A DNA stretch of 64,000 nt from an uncultured Lachnospiraceae bacterium (GCA_964498965.1 CAZCJU010000001.1:38008-102007), one strand, 5' to 3'; counted from the stretch's first letter, positions 34,042 through 43,615 are shown. Made by a program: numbers and translations. Notes: generated from the letters alone by a model not told the origin.

Positions 34042-35219
34042 TGGACTATTCCGAAATGTTATCGAAAACGGCGGTCGAGCTTAAGCCGTCTGGCATACGC
34101 AAATTTTTCGATATGCTCGAAGGCATGAAGGACGTTATCTCCCTCACCGTCGGTCAGCCCGACTTTCCCACCCCGTGGCATATAAGAGAAGCGGGAATAA
34201 TATCCCTCGAAAAAGGCTATACCTATTATACGTCGAACAGCGGAACGATGCAGCTGCGTGAGGAGATATGCAAATACCTCTCCCGCCGCTTCGATATGAG
34301 CTACGACCCGAAAAGCGAGATCATAGTCACCGTCGGAGGAAGCGAAGCGATAGACCTCGCGATCAGAGCGATCGTCGAACCCGGAGATGAAGTCATTATA
34401 CCCGAGCCGTGCTTCGTATGCTACGATCCGCTCGTGCGTTTGGCTCACGGCGTCCCCGTACCCGTAAGCACACGTGCCGAGGACGGTTTTATGCTCACCG
34501 CCGAGCAGATCCGCCGAAAGCTCACGAAACGCACCAAAGCGGTGATATTGCCGTTTCCGAATAACCCGACCGGAGCCGTCATGAGCAAGGAGGAGCTTGA
34601 ACGTATCGCACGTCTGCTCGACGGCACGAATATCGCCGTTTTGTCGGACGAGATCTATGCCGAGCTGACCTACGGCAAAAAGCATATCTCACCCGTTCAT
34701 ATCGACGGAATGCGTGAACGGACGATCATCGCAAGCGGATTTTCGAAAGCGTACTCCATGACCGGGTGGCGGCTCGGCTATACTGCGGCCCCCGCCGAAA
34801 TAACAAAGCAAATGCTTAAAATACACCAGTTCGCCGTGATGTGCGCCCCCACCGCAAGCCAGCTTGCCGCCGTTTCGGCAATGCAAAACGGCGACGACGA
34901 TATCGAAATGATGAAAGCCGAATACGACCGCCGCAGACGCTATATAGTAAAAGGTCTGTGCGATGCGGGCTTGCCGTGTGCCGAACCGCAGGGAGCGTTT
35001 TACGTGTTCCCCGACGTGAGCGGCTACGGTATGAGCAGCGAGGAGTTTTGTCAACGCCTGCTGAATGAAAAAGGCGTAGCCATAGTCCCCGGAACGGCGT
35101 TCGGCGAATGCGGCGAGGGCTATGCGAGGATTTCATATGCTTACAGCGTCAAGCATATCTCAAAAGCACTGGAACGTATTGCGGATTTCACCGCCTCGCT
35201 TCGCTCAGAGCGTTCTTAA
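34041..35219 (+). CDS. PLP-dependent class I/II aminotransferase (aspartate/alanine aminotransferase-like)
   Basis: Motifs NPTGAV and the PLP-lysine region SGFSKAYSMTGWRLGY. About 392 aa. Confidence 0.85.
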   Translation: MDYSEMLSKTAVELKPSGIRKFFDMLEGMKDVISLTVGQPDFPTPWHIREAGIISLEKGYTYYTSNSGTMQLREEICKYLSRRFDMSYDPKSEIIVTVGGSEAIDLAIRAIVEPGDEVIIPEPCFVCYDPLVRLAHGVPVPVSTRAEDGFMLTAEQIRRKLTKRTKAVILPFPNNPTGAVMSKEELERIARLLDGTNIAVLSDEIYAELTYGKKHISPVHIDGMRERTIIASGFSKAYSMTGWRLGYTAAPAEITKQMLKIHQFAVMCAPTASQLAAVSAMQNGDDDIEMMKAEYDRRRRYIVKGLCDAGLPCAEPQGAFYVFPDVSGYGMSSEEFCQRLLNEKGVAIVPGTAFGECGEGYARISYAYSVKHISKALERIADFTASLRSERS

Positions 35220-36968
35220 GCGTTGTGCGAGCCTGTCCGTGTAAAAAGCTTTTATGCACGCCTCGTTCGGGTATAACCCGTCGGGCGTGTATTTTTCTTT
35301 GAGTTCGTCGATCTCGTTTATAGGCGGCAGCAGCGGTGCGAAATCTATGTATTCCACACCCCATTTTTCCAAGATCCTCTTAAACAGCTCCCTGCGTTCG
35401 CTCCGTTCGGCGGCAGGCAACGATATAAACGCCATGCAAAGCCGCTTTTCGGGATATTTCATAACAAGCATATATAAAAACTCCTCAAGACCGCCCGCCG
35501 AGGTCGATATATCGTTGTCCGTACCGTATGAATCGCTCATTTCACCGAGAACAGCCGAATTTACATAGTCGCATATGCCGTCGTCAAACAGTATCGTATC
35601 CCCGTCTACATCGCCCTTGATAACTCGCTCCGTGTATGAACGACGTGCGGACACGTCGGCATATCCGTTGCCGTCGGTGAGAAATTCTTCGTATTCCGCC
35701 CCCGCCGATATCGCCGCAGCCCTTGCCCATGAGTCCGGACAACAGGAAAAACAGAATACCTTTTTGCCGTATAAAGGCGAAACGAGATTTACGTCCGCTC
35801 TGTACTCAACCTCAATATCGTTGCCCGAACAGGATATAACGTCCGACTCCGATCTCAATTCGCCGAGCGAACAGGCACATTCCTCCTCGACAGGCTGCGT
35901 GTACTCGTAGTAGATCTTAAGTCCCTCGCCGCTTTCGTACTTCGATACGCAAAACGACTTGAATTCGCTTACCCCGTCGCAGCCCGCCTCGCCAACGGTG
36001 AAATATACATAATCGTCCGATCCGCCGTACATCATGCCGGCTACCGCCTTTTCCGGATCCCGTGCATCGGGCGTGGTGACGAAATCGGGTGAAGCAAAAC
36101 ACCCCGTCACCGATATCTTCGAAAACGACCTCTTGTTTACTTTGACGCATTCCGTGTTCTTGTATTGTCCGTCACCGTGCGAAACTATGTTAAACGTCCT
36201 CGTGCTTCGCCCGTAAACACCGTCGGCGTGGTACAGCGAACCGCCGTCGCATATGACCTCGCCCGACGATATGCGACGCATCAGCTTGCCCGATACCGCA
36301 TCGTAGGTGTCGCATACACCGCCGAGAGAACGTAATACGACCTCCCGCTCAAGCGGATATTCGACATCGCCCGCAGTCACGGAATCTATGACCGAAGCCG
36401 TTCCGCTTCCGCTTCCGAAAACTATAAGCTTCGTCGGCTTGCACGGAAATACCCCTCCGCTCGGTGCGACCCGCTTGCCGAACGCACGACGATAATATGC
36501 GTTCGAATATTTCGTAAGCTCCTCGGTGCTTATCTTGCTCTCGTCGTATCGCTCGCTCAATTCCCGACAGGCGGCAGTGCTTTTTTCGCATTCGCTCACC
36601 GCCGCCTCGCATAGCTGCGTAAGCTGCGTGTATACCCCGTCCTCGGGTAAAAGTAACTCGCCCTCACCGTCGATAACACCCGGCTCGCACCTGACCTCGA
36701 TCGCCGTGCTTGTACGCAAGCCCGCCGCATATACGCCGACGGTTATACTCGGCGGGTATATTATCCCGCAAGGTACTTTCGCCTCGCCGTCCTTGTTCAA
36801 TACGATGTCAACGTATTTCCCCCCGTTCGATATGCGTGCGGTCTTTATCCGACCGTCCCATTCTCCGTCAAACGAAAATGCGAATACGTAGTCGCCGTTG
36901 CCCGAAACTATCGCTTCGTTCCCCTCCCGACTTATCCGCTTCTGTGCAATATTGAATTTTAATACCAC
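35205..36968 (-). CDS. Tail-fibre/tailspike-like protein with a C-terminal SGNH/GDSL-type esterase-like domain, SOS-box controlled
   Basis: 587 aa. GTG start 7 nt after an AAGGAG RBS. The N-terminus (FAFSFDGEWDGRIKTARISNGGKYVDIVLNKDGEAKVPCGIIYPPSITVGVYA) resembles the Ig-like N-domain of Firmicutes phage fibre/baseplate proteins. The C-terminal part has SGNH-like blocks (VFCFSCCPDS..., ILFDDGICDY, YTPDGLYPNEA). The gene ends 15 nt inside the convergent aminotransferase gene. Confidence 0.55.
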   Translation of the reverse strand: MVLKFNIAQKRISREGNEAIVSGNGDYVFAFSFDGEWDGRIKTARISNGGKYVDIVLNKDGEAKVPCGIIYPPSITVGVYAAGLRTSTAIEVRCEPGVIDGEGELLLPEDGVYTQLTQLCEAAVSECEKSTAACRELSERYDESKISTEELTKYSNAYYRRAFGKRVAPSGGVFPCKPTKLIVFGSGSGTASVIDSVTAGDVEYPLEREVVLRSLGGVCDTYDAVSGKLMRRISSGEVICDGGSLYHADGVYGRSTRTFNIVSHGDGQYKNTECVKVNKRSFSKISVTGCFASPDFVTTPDARDPEKAVAGMMYGGSDDYVYFTVGEAGCDGVSEFKSFCVSKYESGEGLKIYYEYTQPVEEECACSLGELRSESDVISCSGNDIEVEYRADVNLVSPLYGKKVFCFSCCPDSWARAAAISAGAEYEEFLTDGNGYADVSARRSYTERVIKGDVDGDTILFDDGICDYVNSAVLGEMSDSYGTDNDISTSAGGLEEFLYMLVMKYPEKRLCMAFISLPAAERSERRELFKRILEKWGVEYIDFAPLLPPINEIDELKEKYTPDGLYPNEACIKAFYTDRLAQRLRTL

Positions 36969-37233: not shown

Positions 37234-37304
37234 GCCCGAAAACAGTATTTCTTCTCGCCGTTTTTTCCGTTCTCCGTTCCTTCGCCTTGTTTTTCTCCGC
37301 CTAA

Positions 37305-37385
37305 TGTAATCGCCTTTCCGAGAAGGGAAAGGCGACGATCCGTCCCTACGCAAAGCCTTCCCGAAAAGGAAGGCTTTGCGTAGAA
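37305..37385. repeat. REP-like GC-rich hairpin elements
   Basis: cgcctttcc-gagaa-gggaaaggcg (37311..37334) and cgcaaagccttcc-cgaaaa-ggaaggctttgcg (37349..37380). Confidence 0.75.
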
Positions 37386-37390
37386 GCGAT

Positions 37391-39199
37391 TTACGAAGCG
37401 GGGGATCGATCGGGCTTTTTTGTTGTATATTCCAGCGGGATCTCGTACTCTTTTTCGTAGATCTGTCGCCAAGCGTTCTTATTTTCCTCCATCATACGAG
37501 CGACTCTTGCCGAATATTTTTCGTTTTCGCCCGGGTATATCGGCGGGCAGATATGGACGGTATACTCCTGCACATAGAATCCGTCCTCGCCCATGATATC
37601 GGAATCACGCATGGTTATGAAGCATGGCAGGACGGGAACGGAGCTTTTTGCGGCGATTATATATGCACCCTTTTGGAGCGGTTTGGGCTTTCTGTAATTC
37701 CACCACATACTCTGTTCGGGGTACATCAGCACGAAGTTGCCGTCCTTAAGCAATTTTACCGTTGCGTCCATAAATTTTGTAAGTGTTTTACCGTTACTCG
37801 ACAGCGGCAGTGTATTGCAATGTCGCATAAGGAAGCCGTAGAAGCCGGGGAACGAGGTATAATTTCCCTCTCTTATGACCCGATAAAAGGTTCTGTGCGG
37901 TTGATTTGCCGCTTCATACGCCATTTGTATCGCAAATGAATCGAACGCATTAAAATGATTACAGGTGACCACCGCACCGCATTTCAGGTTTGCGAAATTA
38001 TCTATTCCGCGTATTTCTTTGATTATGAGCTTTTTTTCCCGTATCAGCTCGCCGACGAATTTTCTCGCCATAAAATAAGCGGCTTTCGTTTTGAGCTTCT
38101 CGACGGGTGATTTTTTCAGATAATCGATATCATCGGGCAACAGCGGTTTTGTCGGCGGGTCGTCCTCGACGTCCTCGGCGAAGCGTCCGCATTTTTCGTA
38201 TTCCTCTATTTTTTTGAGTATTTCGACTCTGTCCCTCGCACGGTTCAGCTTGTTCAGGCGATTGAGGTAATTATCCTCCCTCGCCGTTTCCTTTTCGGCG
38301 GTCTTAAGCAGATTATCCGCACCGAGTGCGTCGTTTTTCCTTTGCTCGTCGGTATACGATTCGAGTTTACGTATCAGCTCTCCGTAGACGTCCGTATGCA
38401 GAGCGTACTCCCAGAATATATCGCCATAGCGGCAATCGTAGTAGTGCCACGGCTTATTCACCATTATATAATGGATTATTTTCGCCTGCTCGATAGGATA
38501 CGGGATCTCGCCGAACACCTCGGTATTCCAGCGACCGTCGAGCCAATGTACTCTGTCCTTACAGATGAGATTCAGGTAATCCTCGTCCTGCGTAACGACG
38601 AAATTGTACGTTTTGAGAAGCCTTACGAATTTATCGAAAACGCAATGGCATCTGAATTCCGCACAATTCAAAAGCATAACGCCGGCATTGAAGAAGTTAT
38701 ATCTCGACACGCCGACGACCTTCTCGGCATACGTACCGAACGTATCGACCTGCACCATTGCCTGTTCGTGGCATGCACCGAGATAGCAATCGCCGATATC
38801 CGTATCGTACAGCTCGCTTATATCGCCCGTTATCGCCGTATCGCTGTCAACGTATATCGCCTTATCGTACTCGGGGAACATATCCGCGATGAAGAACCTG
38901 TAATATGTCGTTTTGGAATAGTAATCCCGTATGGGAAGCTTATCGGAAACCGAACGCAAATGCTCGGTCACGTCGGCGAATATTATCTCCGTGTTTTCGT
39001 TTGCAAGCTCCGTCAGCCGACGCTTTTCGTCCTCGCCGATATCGGTATGCAAAACGTATATGCGATATCTGCGATCGGGCGAAGCGTTTTTTATCAGCGA
39101 ATAAGCCGAAACGACGGTGAATTTCAGAAAATTCGAATCGCAGGCATAAAAGATCGGTATTATTTCGTTTGTATTTGCGGTATTCGTCGCATTCGTCAT
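37391..39199 (-). CDS. Fusion protein: GT8 glycosyltransferase (N) + PlsC/LPLAT-type acyltransferase (C)
   Basis: 602 aa. The N-terminal part carries GT8 features (IPIFYACDSNF, YVDSDTAITGD with DxD, HYIMVNKPW). The C-terminal part carries the acyltransferase HX4D motif (CNHFNAFDSF) and YPEQSMWW/VPVLP blocks. A coiled, acidic linker joins the two. Confidence 0.75.
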   Translation of the reverse strand: MTNATNTANTNEIIPIFYACDSNFLKFTVVSAYSLIKNASPDRRYRIYVLHTDIGEDEKRRLTELANENTEIIFADVTEHLRSVSDKLPIRDYYSKTTYYRFFIADMFPEYDKAIYVDSDTAITGDISELYDTDIGDCYLGACHEQAMVQVDTFGTYAEKVVGVSRYNFFNAGVMLLNCAEFRCHCVFDKFVRLLKTYNFVVTQDEDYLNLICKDRVHWLDGRWNTEVFGEIPYPIEQAKIIHYIMVNKPWHYYDCRYGDIFWEYALHTDVYGELIRKLESYTDEQRKNDALGADNLLKTAEKETAREDNYLNRLNKLNRARDRVEILKKIEEYEKCGRFAEDVEDDPPTKPLLPDDIDYLKKSPVEKLKTKAAYFMARKFVGELIREKKLIIKEIRGIDNFANLKCGAVVTCNHFNAFDSFAIQMAYEAANQPHRTFYRVIREGNYTSFPGFYGFLMRHCNTLPLSSNGKTLTKFMDATVKLLKDGNFVLMYPEQSMWWNYRKPKPLQKGAYIIAAKSSVPVLPCFITMRDSDIMGEDGFYVQEYTVHICPPIYPGENEKYSARVARMMEENKNAWRQIYEKEYEIPLEYTTKKPDRSPAS

Positions 39200-40032
39200 T
39201 TGCTGTTCTCCCTCTCGAATTTTTCTTTGAGATAAATGTATTCGTACAGTATGTCGTCGAAAACGTAGTAGCCGAATATCTTATGCACTCGGCTCACCTG
39301 CCACTGCTTCACGTTGTCCGTATGCGGATACGGCAGCCAGAAAAGCCGCTTGGAAAAATGCCGCACGACGGTGTGCTTATGCAAAAATTTCTGGTCGTTG
39401 AAGCGTTGCGGCAAAAGCTTTTTCTTTGTCGTAGAGCGTATCAAAGCACTTTGATCGGCAAACGTAAGCTTCTTCGTTTTTATAAGCTCCCGTGCCTTTT
39501 CGAAAAGCCCCGTTTCGCGTGCTTTTTTCATGTCGAAAAGCAGTATTCCCGCATTTATGTAATGCGGATTGAGCAGATATTTTCCGTAGTGATCGTTTGC
39601 CGCCGCATATTCCGCTCCGTCAAGCGGTATGTCGTACAGCAGACGTATGTCGCGGTTGAACATCACGTCGGCATCGGAATACAGCAGTCGGTCGGGTATC
39701 TGCGGAACGAGGTCGGCGAAAAGCCGTATCAGCGTGTACGGCGAGCAGTACGCCCCCTCGTTGGGACAGGCGGCGAACTCACGCATATACAGCTCGGTCA
39801 CGTCGATCCTTTCGACCTCGTTTTTTTCGTTAAAGCTCTTGGCGACGGAAAGCAGAAATTCCGTCTGTGCGTCGCTTATCGGCACGTACTCGGGCTTCAG
39901 GTGACTTACGTCCATAGTGAATATGAATATCTTAAACGGCTCTTTTGTTTCCGTCCGCTTGAATATCGACAGCATTCCCGTCAATATTCCGTCGAAAACG
40001 AAAGAATTACCGCAATACAGCAGATTGATCAT
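39196..40032 (-). CDS. GT8-family glycosyltransferase
   Basis: 278 aa. Motifs LLYCGN...GILTGMLS, YSDADVMF (DxD), NAGILLFD and HFSKRLFWLPYP. ATGA overlap with the downstream gene. Confidence 0.75.
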   Translation of the reverse strand: MINLLYCGNSFVFDGILTGMLSIFKRTETKEPFKIFIFTMDVSHLKPEYVPISDAQTEFLLSVAKSFNEKNEVERIDVTELYMREFAACPNEGAYCSPYTLIRLFADLVPQIPDRLLYSDADVMFNRDIRLLYDIPLDGAEYAAANDHYGKYLLNPHYINAGILLFDMKKARETGLFEKARELIKTKKLTFADQSALIRSTTKKKLLPQRFNDQKFLHKHTVVRHFSKRLFWLPYPHTDNVKQWQVSRVHKIFGYYVFDDILYEYIYLKEKFERENSK

Positions 40033-40780
40033 CTTTTTTAATATACTCTATCAATTTCACTTCGTTAAGCTCGGAACGGGCGACCATTTGCCTGTATACC
40101 TCGTCCCTCAGCTTCTTTTTTCTCTCGCCGACGGGCAACGTGTCGTCGGGATAAAACGGTCCGTCGATGTAGGTAACGAGCCTCGGCTTTTTCGAATGCT
40201 TACGCCTCATGTATACGTTCGTGAAGCAGTACACCGGCACGGAAAACTTTATCGGATAGTAAAACGACTCGCAGGAGAAATTCCTTATCCGCGTGCAGTA
40301 CGGCCAAATATGCGCTTCGGGATAAATGCATACGGCGTTGCGTTTTTCGATACGCCGCTTAAGCTCGGCGTTGAAATTTCTGTACGCCGATATGTCGTCG
40401 GGAAGCGGCATAGCCCCCATGTACGGCGTTAATCTGCCGAGAAGCTTCATCGAAACGTTGTTCGGGTGTACGATCACCGAGGTGCGACGGGGAAAATTTA
40501 TCATCGCCGGATTGACTGCGTCGGCAATGTCCTGTGTGTGATTGCCGTAGATGAAATACCCCGTGTCACCGCATTTTTTCAGTTTTTCCTTGCCGACCGT
40601 GCGTCGGCGGTGAGCAAAGAAAAGATATAACGCCGCAAGCGGTGCGGCTATGAGCCGATACAGAATAAAGCTCGGCACACATCCCCTGTCGTATCTGTAA
40701 TTCCCGTCGATCGTACGAGGCTTTATGACGGCAGTCGAAAATTCGTCGTTCAGCTCGTCGGTATAATATACCGTTTTCAT
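40007..40780 (-). CDS. PlsC/LPLAT-family acyltransferase
   Basis: 257 aa. N-terminal TM, HX4D motif (GNHTQDIAD), and an IYPEAHIWPY block paralogous to the C-domain of the 602-aa fusion. Confidence 0.7.
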   Translation of the reverse strand: MKTVYYTDELNDEFSTAVIKPRTIDGNYRYDRGCVPSFILYRLIAAPLAALYLFFAHRRRTVGKEKLKKCGDTGYFIYGNHTQDIADAVNPAMINFPRRTSVIVHPNNVSMKLLGRLTPYMGAMPLPDDISAYRNFNAELKRRIEKRNAVCIYPEAHIWPYCTRIRNFSCESFYYPIKFSVPVYCFTNVYMRRKHSKKPRLVTYIDGPFYPDDTLPVGERKKKLRDEVYRQMVARSELNEVKLIEYIKKDDQSAVLR

Positions 40781-42496
40781 TTACTCCCCGCTCCCGTCGC
40801 CCCTGTTGGAGCTGTCCGCACGCTTTATCTTTTTCGACGGCGTGAGCGAAAATTCCTTTTTGCGAACATAAAACGTCCGAATGTGCTTGTATACCGCAAG
40901 ACGGGCGTTCACCGCCTTTACCTCGTTGCGTAAAAGCAGGTAAACGAGCCTGTCGTATTCGTCCTCGTCCTCGTCCTCGCCGTCGCCGTCGGACGTGATT
41001 CCCTCTTTTTCGAAATGCTTCCCGACCTCGTTTTTGTCCGGCAAAAGCGATGCGGCGACCTCTACCGTGCCGTCGTCGTTCTCGACGCCGTATACGAATG
41101 CGTCGGAAATGTACGGACTTTGGCATAAAAGCAGCTCGAGTTCCTCGGGCAATACCTTTTTTCCGTTGTTTTTGACTATCATGCTTTTCGACCTGCCGAC
41201 TATCGTGTAGCTGCCGTCGTCGTTACGCTTCGCCAGATCGCCCGTCTTGAACCAGCCGTCCTCAAACGCCCGATCCGTTTCCTCCGCATCGTCGTAATAC
41301 CCGAGCATGACGACGGGAGAACGTACCGCAAGCTCGCCCACTCCGTCGCCGTCCGTGCCGAGCAGCTTGAGCTTCACGCCGCAAAGCGGCTTGCCCGAGG
41401 TTTCGATCGAATGGTAAAAATCGTTGTCACCCATGATTATGGGCGAGGTTTCCGTCAAGCCGTAGCCGCAGTAGACCTTGAAGCCGAGCGATGTGAATCG
41501 CCGCTTAAGCTCGGGACGAAGTGCCGCTCCGCCGCATAATATCAGCCTCAGCCTGCCGCCGAATACCTCGTGTACTTCCTTGTAAATTTTTTTACGCACA
41601 TCGAGCTTCACCCTTTGCAACGCACCCGAAAGCATTCGTGCGGCGGAAAACATCGCCTTTTTTGCCTTGTCGGCTTCGATCTTGGAATTTATCTGCCTGT
41701 AGACCGTTTCCATTATGATAGGCACGGTAACGAATATCGTCGGTCGGTAATATTGCATATCCTGTACCATTCGACGAAGATTTTCATTGTACGCTATGCT
41801 TCCGCCGCTGTATAAAATTGCAAGAAATCCCGCCGTACATTCATATGTGTGCGACAGCGGAAGCACGGATAATACCCTGTCCTCACAAGTCACACTCACC
41901 TGCTTCAAAACATTCATTATGTCATAGCAAATGTTGTATTGCGACAGCATAACGCCCTTCGACGCACCGGAAGTACCCGAGGTGTATATTAAAACGCTTA
42001 AACCGTCGGAAATTATCTCATGCTCGTTGTACGGATCGAAACGCTCCGTAAGCACTCTGCCGTTGCATAAAATTTCATCTATATTAGATAAATTTATCAC
42101 TTTTACGCCAAGCTCGCCGCAACCGGTCAAGTCGACTTTTACAGCCCCGGTGCATATTATAGCCTCCGCTCCCGTCATTTTCAATATCTGACATATGCCC
42201 TCCCGCTTCATCTCTCGGTCGATCGGCACGACAACGCCCACCCCGCAGCATATCGCCAAATACGATATCGCCCAGCCGTAGCCGTTCGGTCCTATCAACG
42301 CGACCTTTGCGTTCTCGCTCACAAGACCCCGTATATATGCCGCCAACGCACGCACGTCCCGGCGTGCCTCGGCGTAGGTCTTTTCTTTTTCCTCACCGTT
42401 TTTCCGAAATAAAAACGCCGTCCTGTCGCCGTATTCCTCGACGCTCGTATCGAGCAGCTCCCTGAAATTCTTTACGAGCCTTACGTCATATACCAT
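40781..42496 (-). CDS. Long-chain fatty-acid-CoA/AMP ligase (FadD-like adenylating enzyme) with an acidic C-terminal insert
   Basis: AMP-binding motifs IYTSGTSGASKGVMLS, YGLTET and FKTGD. Acidic run SDGDGEDEDEDEYD. Start ATG 42496 or 42502 (AAAGGG RBS); the maximal ORF starts at 42544. Confidence 0.85.
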   Translation of the reverse strand: MVYDVRLVKNFRELLDTSVEEYGDRTAFLFRKNGEEKEKTYAEARRDVRALAAYIRGLVSENAKVALIGPNGYGWAISYLAICCGVGVVVPIDREMKREGICQILKMTGAEAIICTGAVKVDLTGCGELGVKVINLSNIDEILCNGRVLTERFDPYNEHEIISDGLSVLIYTSGTSGASKGVMLSQYNICYDIMNVLKQVSVTCEDRVLSVLPLSHTYECTAGFLAILYSGGSIAYNENLRRMVQDMQYYRPTIFVTVPIIMETVYRQINSKIEADKAKKAMFSAARMLSGALQRVKLDVRKKIYKEVHEVFGGRLRLILCGGAALRPELKRRFTSLGFKVYCGYGLTETSPIIMGDNDFYHSIETSGKPLCGVKLKLLGTDGDGVGELAVRSPVVMLGYYDDAEETDRAFEDGWFKTGDLAKRNDDGSYTIVGRSKSMIVKNNGKKVLPEELELLLCQSPYISDAFVYGVENDDGTVEVAASLLPDKNEVGKHFEKEGITSDGDGEDEDEDEYDRLVYLLLRNEVKAVNARLAVYKHIRTFYVRKKEFSLTPSKKIKRADSSNRGDGSGE

Positions 42497-42824
42497 TTTC
42501 ATCGCCCTTTCTCGGTCTGAACGCATAGATCGCAAGCCCCGCAAACGCAGTCAATCCGCCCGTTATCATCGCCGCACGACGCATACGCAGCCGTGCCGCA
42601 ACGGCGGAAAAATCGCCCCTCGGCTTCTTCTTCGGTTCGCCCTCCGCGGCTATGTCCCATTCCCTGTAAAAATATCTGCAATCGGTGCATTTTTTCAGAT
42701 GACGACGAACAAGACGTGCGGTAAGCTTGCCCGCACAGCCGTCCTTTATCGTCGGATACAGATCCTTTACCACATCACACGGTAATCCGTTCATATCTAC
42801 GCTTCCTCCTCCCGACACCGTCAT
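42486..42824 (-). CDS. Anti-sigma factor (zf-HC2 type, single TM)
   Basis: HLKKCTDCRYFYREW is the H-x3-C-x2-C motif. C-terminal TM segment ITGGLTAFAGLAIYAF. ATGA overlap with the sigma-factor stop; an alternative start lies at ATG 42794. Confidence 0.75.
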   Translation of the reverse strand: MTVSGGGSVDMNGLPCDVVKDLYPTIKDGCAGKLTARLVRRHLKKCTDCRYFYREWDIAAEGEPKKKPRGDFSAVAARLRMRRAAMITGGLTAFAGLAIYAFRPRKGDENGI

Positions 42825-43312
42825 TCCCGAGTGTCCTCAAGCTCTTTTCTCAGTATTTCCTTGGCTCGGTGAAATATTACCTTTGCCGAACCCTCTCTTA
42901 TGCCCAACGAAGCGGCAATGTCTGCGTACGACAGTCCCGCATATATCCTCAAGATGACCACATCTCGAAATTTATTCGGCAACGCCGCTATCGCCTGCCG
43001 TACACGTTCGGCGGCAAAACGCTTCTCCACTACCCGCTCCGGCTCCTCGCCGCCCTCCGTGTAAAATGCGAGGTCAAGCTCGACGGTCTTTATGCGATCC
43101 TTGCGTAAATACCCGAGCCATACGTTCTTGCCTATCGCCGCAAGCCATGTGAACAGCTCGCAGTTGCCGTTGTAACGGTCGAATGCGATAAAAGCCCTGT
43201 AAAACGTTTCCTGAGTCATTTCTTCACTTAATTCGGCACTGCGGCAAAGCTTGTACAAAAAAGCGTATACACGGGGGAAATATTCCTCGTAGATCTTTTC
43301 GAATTCTTTCAA
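42821..43312 (-). CDS. ECF-type sigma-70 family RNA polymerase sigma factor
   Basis: Region 2 (YFPRVYAFLYKLCRSAELSEEMTQETFYRAF) and region 4 (LSYADIAASLGIREGSAKVIFHRAKEIL). The preferred start is TTG 43312, 9 nt after a GGGAGGTG RBS; the maximal ORF starts at 43387. Confidence 0.85.
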   Translation of the reverse strand: MKEFEKIYEEYFPRVYAFLYKLCRSAELSEEMTQETFYRAFIAFDRYNGNCELFTWLAAIGKNVWLGYLRKDRIKTVELDLAFYTEGGEEPERVVEKRFAAERVRQAIAALPNKFRDVVILRIYAGLSYADIAASLGIREGSAKVIFHRAKEILRKELEDTRE

Positions 43313-43484
43313 TACCCGCCGCACCTCCCTCGCAAAACGGTTTTTCGAACGTTCGATAACGACTTGCCCCGTCAATCGACAAAGCAAGAGGTCGGTCTAC
43401 GCCTCTCTTGCCTAAGTTAGTAACAAAAATCTCCCGAAAGTTACAAAACGGGATAATTTTTTTGCTTTTCCGCGGCTCTCCCAT

Positions 43485-43615
43485 ATATCTTTCCCCCGGA
43501 GAAAGATGGCAGCCCGAAGGGTTGACCGATGAAGGCATCATTGCACCCGACGCAACGGCTTTCCCTCTCGGGGGAAAGTGTCGGCCCGAAGGATCGACGG
43601 ATCAAGGGAGCGTGT
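43485..43615. repeat. REP-like GC-rich hairpin elements
   Basis: tctttccccc-gga-gaaaga, ggcagcccgaagggttgaccgatgaaggc, ctttccctctcgggggaaag and tgtcggcccgaaggatcgacggatcaaggg. Confidence 0.75.

Follow-up and report, generated by a model that had tools for sequence, protein, structure and literature searches.

A sigma factor unit predicted to serve fatty acid supply, and its associated glycosyltransferase-acyltransferase cassette, in an uncultured Lachnospiraceae bacterium

In Bacillus subtilis, the SigW/RsiW pair of extracytoplasmic function (ECF) sigma factor and anti-sigma factor acts on fabHa-fabF, and in Pseudomonas aeruginosa SigX acts on fatty acid biosynthesis genes (PMC3498285, PMC8144471, PMC3875570). 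In these systems an ECF sigma factor held by a membrane anti-sigma factor alters the expression of fatty acid synthesis genes and hence the composition of the membrane. Here we describe a six-gene unit that may work along similar lines. It lies on the minus strand of a 64,000-nucleotide stretch of DNA from an uncultured Lachnospiraceae bacterium (GCA_964498965.1, CAZCJU010000001.1:38008-102007), which we call the window and whose positions are counted from its first letter. The unit encodes an ECF sigma factor, a zf-HC2 anti-sigma factor, a FadD-type fatty-acid-activating enzyme, and a trio consisting of a stand-alone acyltransferase of the lysophospholipid acyltransferase type (LPLAT-a), a glycosyltransferase of family GT8 (GT8-a), and a protein in which a GT8 domain is fused to a second LPLAT domain. 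On balance we favour the reading that a sigma factor unit serving fatty acid supply has here been joined to a trio that makes an acylated diglycosyl lipid.

The unit departs from SigW and SigX in several respects. Those two factors govern broad stress regulons in which fab genes are a minor component, whereas the predicted targets here are essentially confined to fatty acid supply and switch, by lineage, among type II fatty acid synthesis (FASII), Fak and FadD. The anti-sigma factor is about 100 amino acids (aa) long, tail-anchored and without an outer domain, and in the window's genus the predicted regulon takes in a cassette of glycosyl- and acyltransferases. For the trio, the closest analogue would be the early pathway of phosphatidylinositol mannoside synthesis in mycobacteria (PimA, PimB', PatA and a second acyltransferase), although the resemblance is one of logic only. 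There, as proposed here, two glycosyl transfers at the cytoplasmic face combine with acyl transfers to give an acylated diglycosyl lipid, with one acyl group going onto a sugar, and among the structures that match the acyltransferase domain of the fusion PatA ranks second. However, the window's glycosyltransferases are GT-A enzymes of family GT8 rather than GT-B enzymes of family GT4, its acyltransferases are of the PF01553 type with YPEQ or YPEA blocks, one glycosyltransferase is fused to one acyltransferase, and there is no inositol-lipid context.

Sigma factor orthologues and fatty acid supply genes

We surveyed 401 genomes of the order Oscillospirales, with E <= 1e-33 as the threshold for orthology, and found orthologues of the sigma factor in 20 of them, distributed over 12 genera. 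All genomes used throughout the analysis are metagenome-assembled genomes (MAGs); G000 denotes the window's own genome, G001 a congener, other G numbers further sampled genomes, and L numbers metagenomic or assembly loci. The sequence-only reading had looked to the DNA upstream of position 43387 for an ECF promoter, and a candidate lies there (Table 1). The pattern TGTAAC-N17/18-YAYTAAC is present upstream of every sigma orthologue examined, across at least 12 genera and at sigma identities of 41-78%. In the congener the motif has been kept while the surrounding spacer diverged, and three further genera have orthologous sigma/zf-HC2 pairs preceded by this motif, the exact pattern being nearly unique in each genome.

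The sigma loci adjoin fatty acid supply genes in 17 of the 20 genomes, and the genes concerned differ by lineage. In the window's own genus the order is motif, sigma, anti-sigma, FadD and trio, and in G391 and G126 it is motif, sigma, anti-sigma and FadD. Three species of one other genus (G232, G313 and G397) have FakA and FakB after the motif and the sigma pair. In 11 genomes from five families the pair is divergent from, or adjoins, a FASII cluster, and sites resembling the motif are oriented towards fabH or acpP. A second site stands directly before fabH-acpP-fabK-fabD-fabG-fabF-accB-fabZ-accC in G034, G090, G111 and G282 (in a divergent arrangement in G034), and in G009 one is found 28 nucleotides (nt) before a fakB(DegV)-fakA operon. 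The loci L167-L169 contain sigma-antisigma-FadD operons with a one-mismatch or variant site. At L169 (7001-10674), which belongs to a widespread metagenomic lineage, FadD is followed by a gene for glycerophosphodiester phosphodiesterase, another lipid-salvage gene.

The pattern was put to the test in two genomes where sigma and fab genes are unlinked (G248 and G275), and in both an exact TGTAAC-N18-YAYTAAC is located 35-60 nt before fabH on another contig. An extra exact match in G248 (C15) has no plausible gene downstream and is taken as background. Of the sigma-bearing genomes tested for FabF, seven lack it, and the sigma factor is tied to FadD or Fak in six of these (G000, G001, G009, G232, G391 and G126); six possess it, and in four of these the motif precedes fabH (G034, G282, G248 and G275). 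The other two, G313 and G397, have the sigma-antisigma-FakA-FakB operon, and the part of their fab clusters that was retrieved contains no motif. We propose that the targets of this orthogroup are fatty acid supply genes, varying by lineage among FASII, FakA/FakB and FadD. A literature search for a link between ECF sigma factors and fatty acids in Clostridia gave nothing specific, and the phrase 'fatty acid' is absent from the main text of the ECF classification of Casas-Pastor et al. 2021 (PMC7826278).

The sigma factor has the two domains listed in Table 1 and no other, as is typical of ECF (group IV) factors, and scores 90.9 bits against TIGR02937 (cut-off 42.9). Its partner carries a zinc-binding HxxxCxxC motif and its gene overlaps that of the sigma factor, as expected of a co-transcribed class I anti-sigma factor, and the predicted site upstream of the sigma gene has an AAC-containing -35 element, consistent with autoregulation. 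Orthologue alignment and the database gene call (P0271) make TTG at 43312, rather than 43387, the most likely start.

The anti-sigma factor of the window scores 20.6 bits against zf-HC2, slightly under the cut-off of 22.2, with HxxxCxxC present; its orthologues score 25.7-50.6 bits. At 24 sigma loci we identified 23 anti-sigma factors, all of them with HxxxCxxC, and L128 is the only locus where none was identified. All but one of the 23 are proteins of 95-129 aa with an N-terminal HxxxCxxC domain, a single C-terminal transmembrane helix and a basic outer tail of 3-14 aa, and an extracytoplasmic sensor domain is absent from these tail-anchored proteins. Because there is no outer domain and the predicted target set concerns fatty acids, the cue that releases the sigma factor is probably perceived either within the membrane or in the cytoplasm, and lipid or fatty acid status read there is the most likely candidate.

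The activating enzyme and the layout of the unit

The third gene of the unit encodes an enzyme with the adenylation fold, as judged by PF00501 and by the conserved blocks YTSGTSGASKGV, GYGLTE and TGDL; its most likely start is ATG at 42502. Models of long-chain fatty-acid-CoA ligases head its NCBIfam matches, and none of the NCBIfam models reaches its curated cut-off, the best being NF004837 (210 against 476 bits). A FadD-like adenylating enzyme had been read at this position from the outset, and that part holds. The 'acidic insert' ascribed to it does not: it is only a lineage-specific expansion of a short variable loop by 6-7 residues, and not an insertion of the FAAL kind. FadD orthologues follow the sigma and anti-sigma genes in three other lineages.

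FabF, FabH, FabK, FabD, FabZ and acyl carrier protein gave no matches in G000 (84% complete) or G001 (96% complete), and both genomes contain two FakB-FakA pairs as well as FadD paralogues. Because FASII is undetected while Fak pairs and FadD paralogues are present, the genus is probably a fatty acid auxotroph. FadD would therefore probably supply scavenged acyl groups by activating imported fatty acids.

All six open reading frames (ORFs) and the domains first assigned to them stand, and so do the overlapping or abutting junctions, all five of which, like the leader and the terminal stem-loop in Table 1, were read directly from the sequence. Sigma and anti-sigma overlap in ATGA, anti-sigma and FadD by 20 nt, FadD and LPLAT-a abut in TAAATG with no gap, LPLAT-a and GT8-a overlap by 26 nt, and GT8-a and the fusion again share ATGA. 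The stem-loop is likely to be the end of the transcription unit. The next gene downstream (35205-36968, 587 aa) has a consensus promoter of its own at 37233-37205, which rules it out as a member of the operon. We find no conserved internal promoter. Promoter-like matches within the unit are as numerous as expected from shuffled sequence, and the single good sigma-70-like match, inside FadD (42184-42156), is not retained in two congeners and is an unlikely driver of the trio. The packing of the genes behind the predicted ECF promoter suggests that the six genes are transcribed as a single unit that starts from the promoter (43445) and ends with the hairpin (37346), as the sequence-only reading had supposed.

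Two GC-rich hairpins resembling repetitive extragenic palindromic elements occupy the stretch that separates the pth stop codon from the sigma promoter (43450-43610), and similar hairpins are found past the fusion stop (37300-37383). In a congener whose fusion is 91% identical (L113, 3683-3827), a gap of 143 nt separates GT8-a and the fusion where the window has the ATGA overlap.

Table 1. Features of the six-gene unit, listed in the direction of transcription
Feature	Position in window	Strand	Characteristics
Predicted ECF-type autoregulatory promoter	43416..43445	minus	TGTAAC-N17-TACTAAC; sole exact match in own genome; conserved before orthologues
Leader, about 100 nt, promoter to sigma start	43313..43415	minus	GGGAGG ribosome-binding site 11 nt before TTG
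ECF sigma factor, 163 aa	42821..43312	minus	Pfam Sigma70_r2 and Sigma70_r4_2; TIGR02937; longest ORF would begin at 43387
Tail-anchored ZAS-type anti-sigma factor, 112 aa	42486..42824	minus	zf-HC2; HLKKCTDC motif; transmembrane helix at about residues 84-102; C-terminal tail of 10 aa
ACSL/FadD-type fatty-acid-activating enzyme, 573 aa	40781..42502	minus	AMP-binding (PF00501), 218 bits; longest ORF 40781-42544
Stand-alone LPLAT-type acyltransferase (LPLAT-a), 257 aa	40007..40780	minus	PF01553 weak; HX5D variant GNHTQDIAD; IYPEAHIWPY block
Divergent GT8 glycosyltransferase (GT8-a), 278 aa	39196..40032	minus	PF01501, 52.1 bits; DxD as SDADV
GT8::LPLAT fusion, 602 aa	37391..39199	minus	Pfam GT8 and PF01553; LgtC-like GT8 domain, helical linker, PlsC-like domain
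Stem-loop, perfect 16 bp	37346..37383	minus	7 nt past fusion stop; no T-run

The glycosyltransferase-acyltransferase cassette

The fusion protein matches PF01501 with 161.8 bits and PF01553 with 48.9 bits. The motifs of its GT8 domain (DSD, DQD and HxxxxxKPW) are invariant. Its PlsC-like domain carries NHFNAFD and YPEQSMWWNYRKP, with invariant columns NH-x4-D/E, REGN, YPEQxMWxNYRKP and PxxP, and HX4D/E is present in 12 of 12 diverse homologues. GT8-a also scores above the PF01501 cut-off, and DSD/DAD, DQD and H..KPW are invariant in the two GT8 proteins, of which only the fusion was modelled; motif conservation in GT8-a was checked across 54 orthologues, and its C-terminal region is highly conserved but divergent. 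LPLAT-a has a hydrophobic helix at its N-terminus, and its HX5D variant (GNHT....D) is conserved across 46 orthologues.

An AlphaFold2 model of the fusion is a confident single body (pLDDT 89.9, pTM 0.84). The N-terminal half matches the folds of WbbM, LgtC and GlyE (E of 1e-20 to 1e-18 for WbbM and LgtC). The alpha-1,4-galactosyltransferase LgtC of Neisseria and the GT8 domain of WbbM are its best sequence and fold matches, sharing DxD, DQD and H...KPW. However, identity is 24-26%, those enzymes extend lipopolysaccharide (LPS) or O-antigen in diderm bacteria, and the GT8 domain here is fused to an acyltransferase. The hosts of the trio are mostly Clostridia, which are taken to be monoderm. 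The C-terminal half matches PlsC, PatA, LpxM and GPAT, all of them lipid acyltransferases and mostly enzymes of the membrane surface. The top match is PlsC of Thermotoga maritima, a 1-acyl-glycerol-3-phosphate acyltransferase (5KYM) that shares HX4D, but the TM-score is only 0.53-0.58 at 16% identity, and the genome has a separate housekeeping PlsC. In Escherichia coli, Aas (2-acyl-glycerophosphoethanolamine acyltransferase/acyl-ACP synthetase) likewise couples AMP-forming fatty acid activation to an LPLAT, as FadD followed by LPLAT-a may do. Aas, however, is a single fusion protein that re-acylates lysophospholipids, and the match of LPLAT-a to NF006386 is negligible (14 against 1221 bits).

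The paralogy first noticed between LPLAT-a and the acyltransferase half of the fusion is real but distant (23% identity over 196 aa, E = 6e-5), and GT8-a is related to the N-terminal half at a similar level of identity (23%, E = 4e-10). As a housekeeping lysophosphatidic acid acyltransferase the fusion scores only 27.7 bits against TIGR00530 (cut-off 102.95). A better PF01553 gene (84.9 bits) is found at G000:C18, and relatives that lack the trio keep this single LPLAT alone. The separate PlsC at C18 rules out a housekeeping role for the LPLATs of the trio, which are thus extra. Neither does the trio replace the glycolipid synthase YpfP/UgtP, because the distribution of PF06925 (MGDG_synth) is not complementary: within the family, 5 of the 11 genomes that have the four-domain module carry it, as do 6 of the 14 that lack the module, and the window's own genome has both.

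Homologues of the fusion number more than 3,800, and clustering at 50% identity leaves about a dozen full-length groups. Its co-occurrence with other genes across genomes, which had been singled out for checking, was examined at 80 species-level fusion loci from named assemblies, of which the 69 with at least 1.8 kb of upstream DNA are informative, and the trio recurs: LPLAT-a and GT8-a lie directly upstream of the fusion in 63 of the 69. At 57-70% identity, the hosts are MAGs labelled as Oscillospiraceae, Ruminococcus, Acutalibacteraceae, Christensenellales and Erysipelotrichaceae, as well as Lachnospiraceae (Roseburia, Agathobacter, Lachnospira and Acetatifactor) and Sphaerochaeta. Within the family to which the window belongs, these four domains are also encoded by four individual genes, in other orders. 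Neither this sigma factor, nor its anti-sigma factor, nor an orthologous FadD is present at any of the 80 loci. The idea that the six genes are a conserved pathway unit therefore fails, since the trio stands without the sigma factor or FadD in every other lineage sampled.

The flanks of the trio are variable. Lipid-related genes that recur are those for DegV/FakB (6-7 of 80 loci) and an FlK-type hotdog thioesterase (6 of 80). Seven of the 80 loci encode, within a few genes of the trio, a polytopic membrane protein of about 700 aa with a C-terminal sulfatase-family domain, similar to LtaS and phosphoglycerol transferases, and at six of these its gene directly follows the fusion; this neighbour (at L058, L036 and others) hints that the glycolipid may be the substrate or anchor of a polyol-phosphate polymer. 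At one Oscillospirales locus (L031, 5960-9773) a 4HBT thioesterase gene overlaps the start of the LPLAT gene, with a DAGK_cat kinase and an AMP-binding ligase within 3 kb. The fused trio is also found, at about 60% identity, in Sphaerochaeta/Spirochaetales MAGs from herbivore guts (L084, L087, L094 and L105), which suggests horizontal transfer between phyla.

The complete six-gene order is restricted to the window's genus: it is present in the window, in the congener (G001/L032, fusion 80% identical) and at L113 (91%). In two sister lineages, whose sigma factors are 68-74% identical, DUF218, pth, sigma, anti-sigma and FadD are syntenic and the trio is absent. Because of this synteny, insertion of the trio behind an older sigma-antisigma-FadD operon is the most parsimonious account. 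Base composition gives no sign of a recent transfer, as neither GC content nor that of third codon positions (GC3) differs meaningfully from the neighbouring genes, and insertion is thus argued from synteny alone. Among the relatives G000-G024, FabF is found in none of 11 genomes that have the module, fused or split, and in 4 of 14 that lack it (p roughly 0.08), a difference that is no more than suggestive of a link of the module to dependence on fatty acids taken up from outside.

Alternative explanations and significance

The reading we favour would run as follows. Two older modules were joined, an autoregulated sigma-antisigma-FadD operon and a mobile LPLAT/GT8/GT8::LPLAT trio. At rest, the sigma factor would be held at the membrane by its tail-anchored anti-sigma factor. 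Once it is released by a lipid or fatty-acid-related cue, RNA polymerase carrying it would fire the promoter at 43445-43416 and transcribe all six genes. FadD would then activate scavenged, imported fatty acids, the two GT8 domains would use UDP-sugars to attach two alpha-linked hexoses to a lipid acceptor in the membrane, and both LPLAT domains would esterify acyl groups onto this acceptor to yield an acylated diglycosyl lipid. Placed directly behind FadD, the trio would be switched on along with fatty acid scavenging. An acylated glycolipid, as originally suggested, is the best fit to a set of enzymes for fatty acid activation, two acyl transfers and two retaining glycosyl transfers. No characterised pathway matched it in NCBIfam, the PDB or the literature, in keeping with the first impression, and a literature search for the trio cassette gave nothing specific.

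Several points weigh against this reading. The acceptor, donor and product are, like the signal, inferred, and the promoter is a computational inference. The exact pattern shows no genome-wide enrichment, a reversed control being at least as frequent, so that the motif carries weight only by its position and context. In G018, which lacks FabF, the sigma pair adjoins rplJ-rplL and has no link to fatty acids. No motif was found before the trio where it is unlinked from the sigma factor (G018, G006 and G007); control of the trio by the sigma factor would thus be specific to this lineage and might be incidental. With 19.8 bits, LPLAT-a falls short of the PF01553 cut-off of 23, and it has HX5D rather than HX4D. 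We know of no ECF factor of this sigma factor's group that has been studied, and to our knowledge GT8 enzymes are not known as diacylglycerol glycosyltransferases.

These unlinked trios would also fit an explanation that we consider unlikely, in which the sigma pair controls FadD only and the trio landed behind it by chance, to be expressed from a weak internal promoter or by constitutive read-through with no tie to the sigma factor's signal. At other loci the trio invariably has an upstream region to itself and is never accompanied by this sigma factor, the sister lineages have sigma-antisigma-FadD only, and there are sigma-70-like matches inside FadD. However, the TAAATG junction is too tight to hold a promoter, the internal match is unconserved and promoter-like matches do not exceed the shuffled expectation, and three lineages of the genus, whose fusions are 100, 91 and 80% identical, retain the six-gene order. 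The lipid-related neighbours of the trio in other genomes, which include DegV/FakB and thioesterases, also share the functional theme of the operon. The sequence-only reading had instead called the sigma factor an envelope-stress regulator that triggers modification of the envelope. In the classical form of this model it would resemble SigW, SigM or SigV, and damage to the wall or membrane from outside would lead to protective remodelling of the envelope. The TGTAAC -35 element does resemble those of Bacillus ECF promoters, and the top NCBIfam matches are the SigM, SigY, SigX and SigW families. Every equivalog score is far under its curated cut-off, however: among SigW, SigM, SigX, SigY and SigV the best is 102 against 148 bits, for the SigM subfamily, with 80 against 209 for SigW and 81 against 260 for SigX. 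SigW is itself known to act on fabHa-fabF (PMC3498285, PMC8144471), but the targets predicted here are confined to the sigma factor's own operon and to fatty acid supply genes (FASII, FakAB and FadD), and the very short outer tail in 22 of 23 anti-sigma factors offers no external sensor. The label is too generic, and we regard the model behind it as very unlikely.

The acceptor could be something other than a membrane lipid, and the trio might glycosylate and acylate, for example, a protein, a small glycoside destined for secretion, or a teichoic-acid-type polymer or its linkage unit. Among bacterial GT8 enzymes, those that have been characterised (LgtC, WbbM and GlyE) use LPS cores, O-antigen or serine-rich proteins as acceptors, the LtaS-like gene adjoins the trio in 7 of 80 loci, and no flippase is conserved with it. 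We nevertheless think this improbable, as the matches of both LPLAT domains are confined to acyltransferases that act on lipids (PlsC, PatA, LpxM and GPAT), LPLAT-a has its N-terminal hydrophobic helix, and the neighbouring DegV, thioesterase and FadD genes point to fatty-acyl chemistry, while a polymerase, an exporter and a gene for a target protein are all absent from the cassette.

Beyond the reading we favour, a bolder proposal seems to us possible but, taken as a whole, somewhat doubtful. The sigma factor and anti-sigma factor would be a dedicated homeostat of membrane fatty acid supply in Oscillospirales, with the role that FapR or FabT has in other Firmicutes, and the anti-sigma factor of about 100 aa would read lipid or acyl status through its membrane helix or zinc site. 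Its output would have been rewired from FASII to scavenging by FakAB and FadD as lineages turned auxotrophic, and in this genus it would also command a mobile cassette for a novel acylated glycolipid, which might serve to store imported fatty acids or act as a sink for them.

What is new here is an Oscillospirales sigma factor orthogroup with a defined motif and a predicted regulon that shifts among FASII, Fak and FadD, together with the apparent capture of the trio in one genus. Many abundant Clostridia of the gut and rumen, probably including this genus, lack FASII and rely on imported fatty acids. The locus offers a concrete, testable regulator of fatty acid supply in such organisms, with a sigma factor, a minimal anti-sigma factor, a defined motif, and predicted targets that are consistent across genera. 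Fatty acid scavenging, in turn, may give a physiological handle on the product of a widespread four-domain cassette, and as the surface glycolipids of gut commensals are often immune ligands, that product would be worth identifying.

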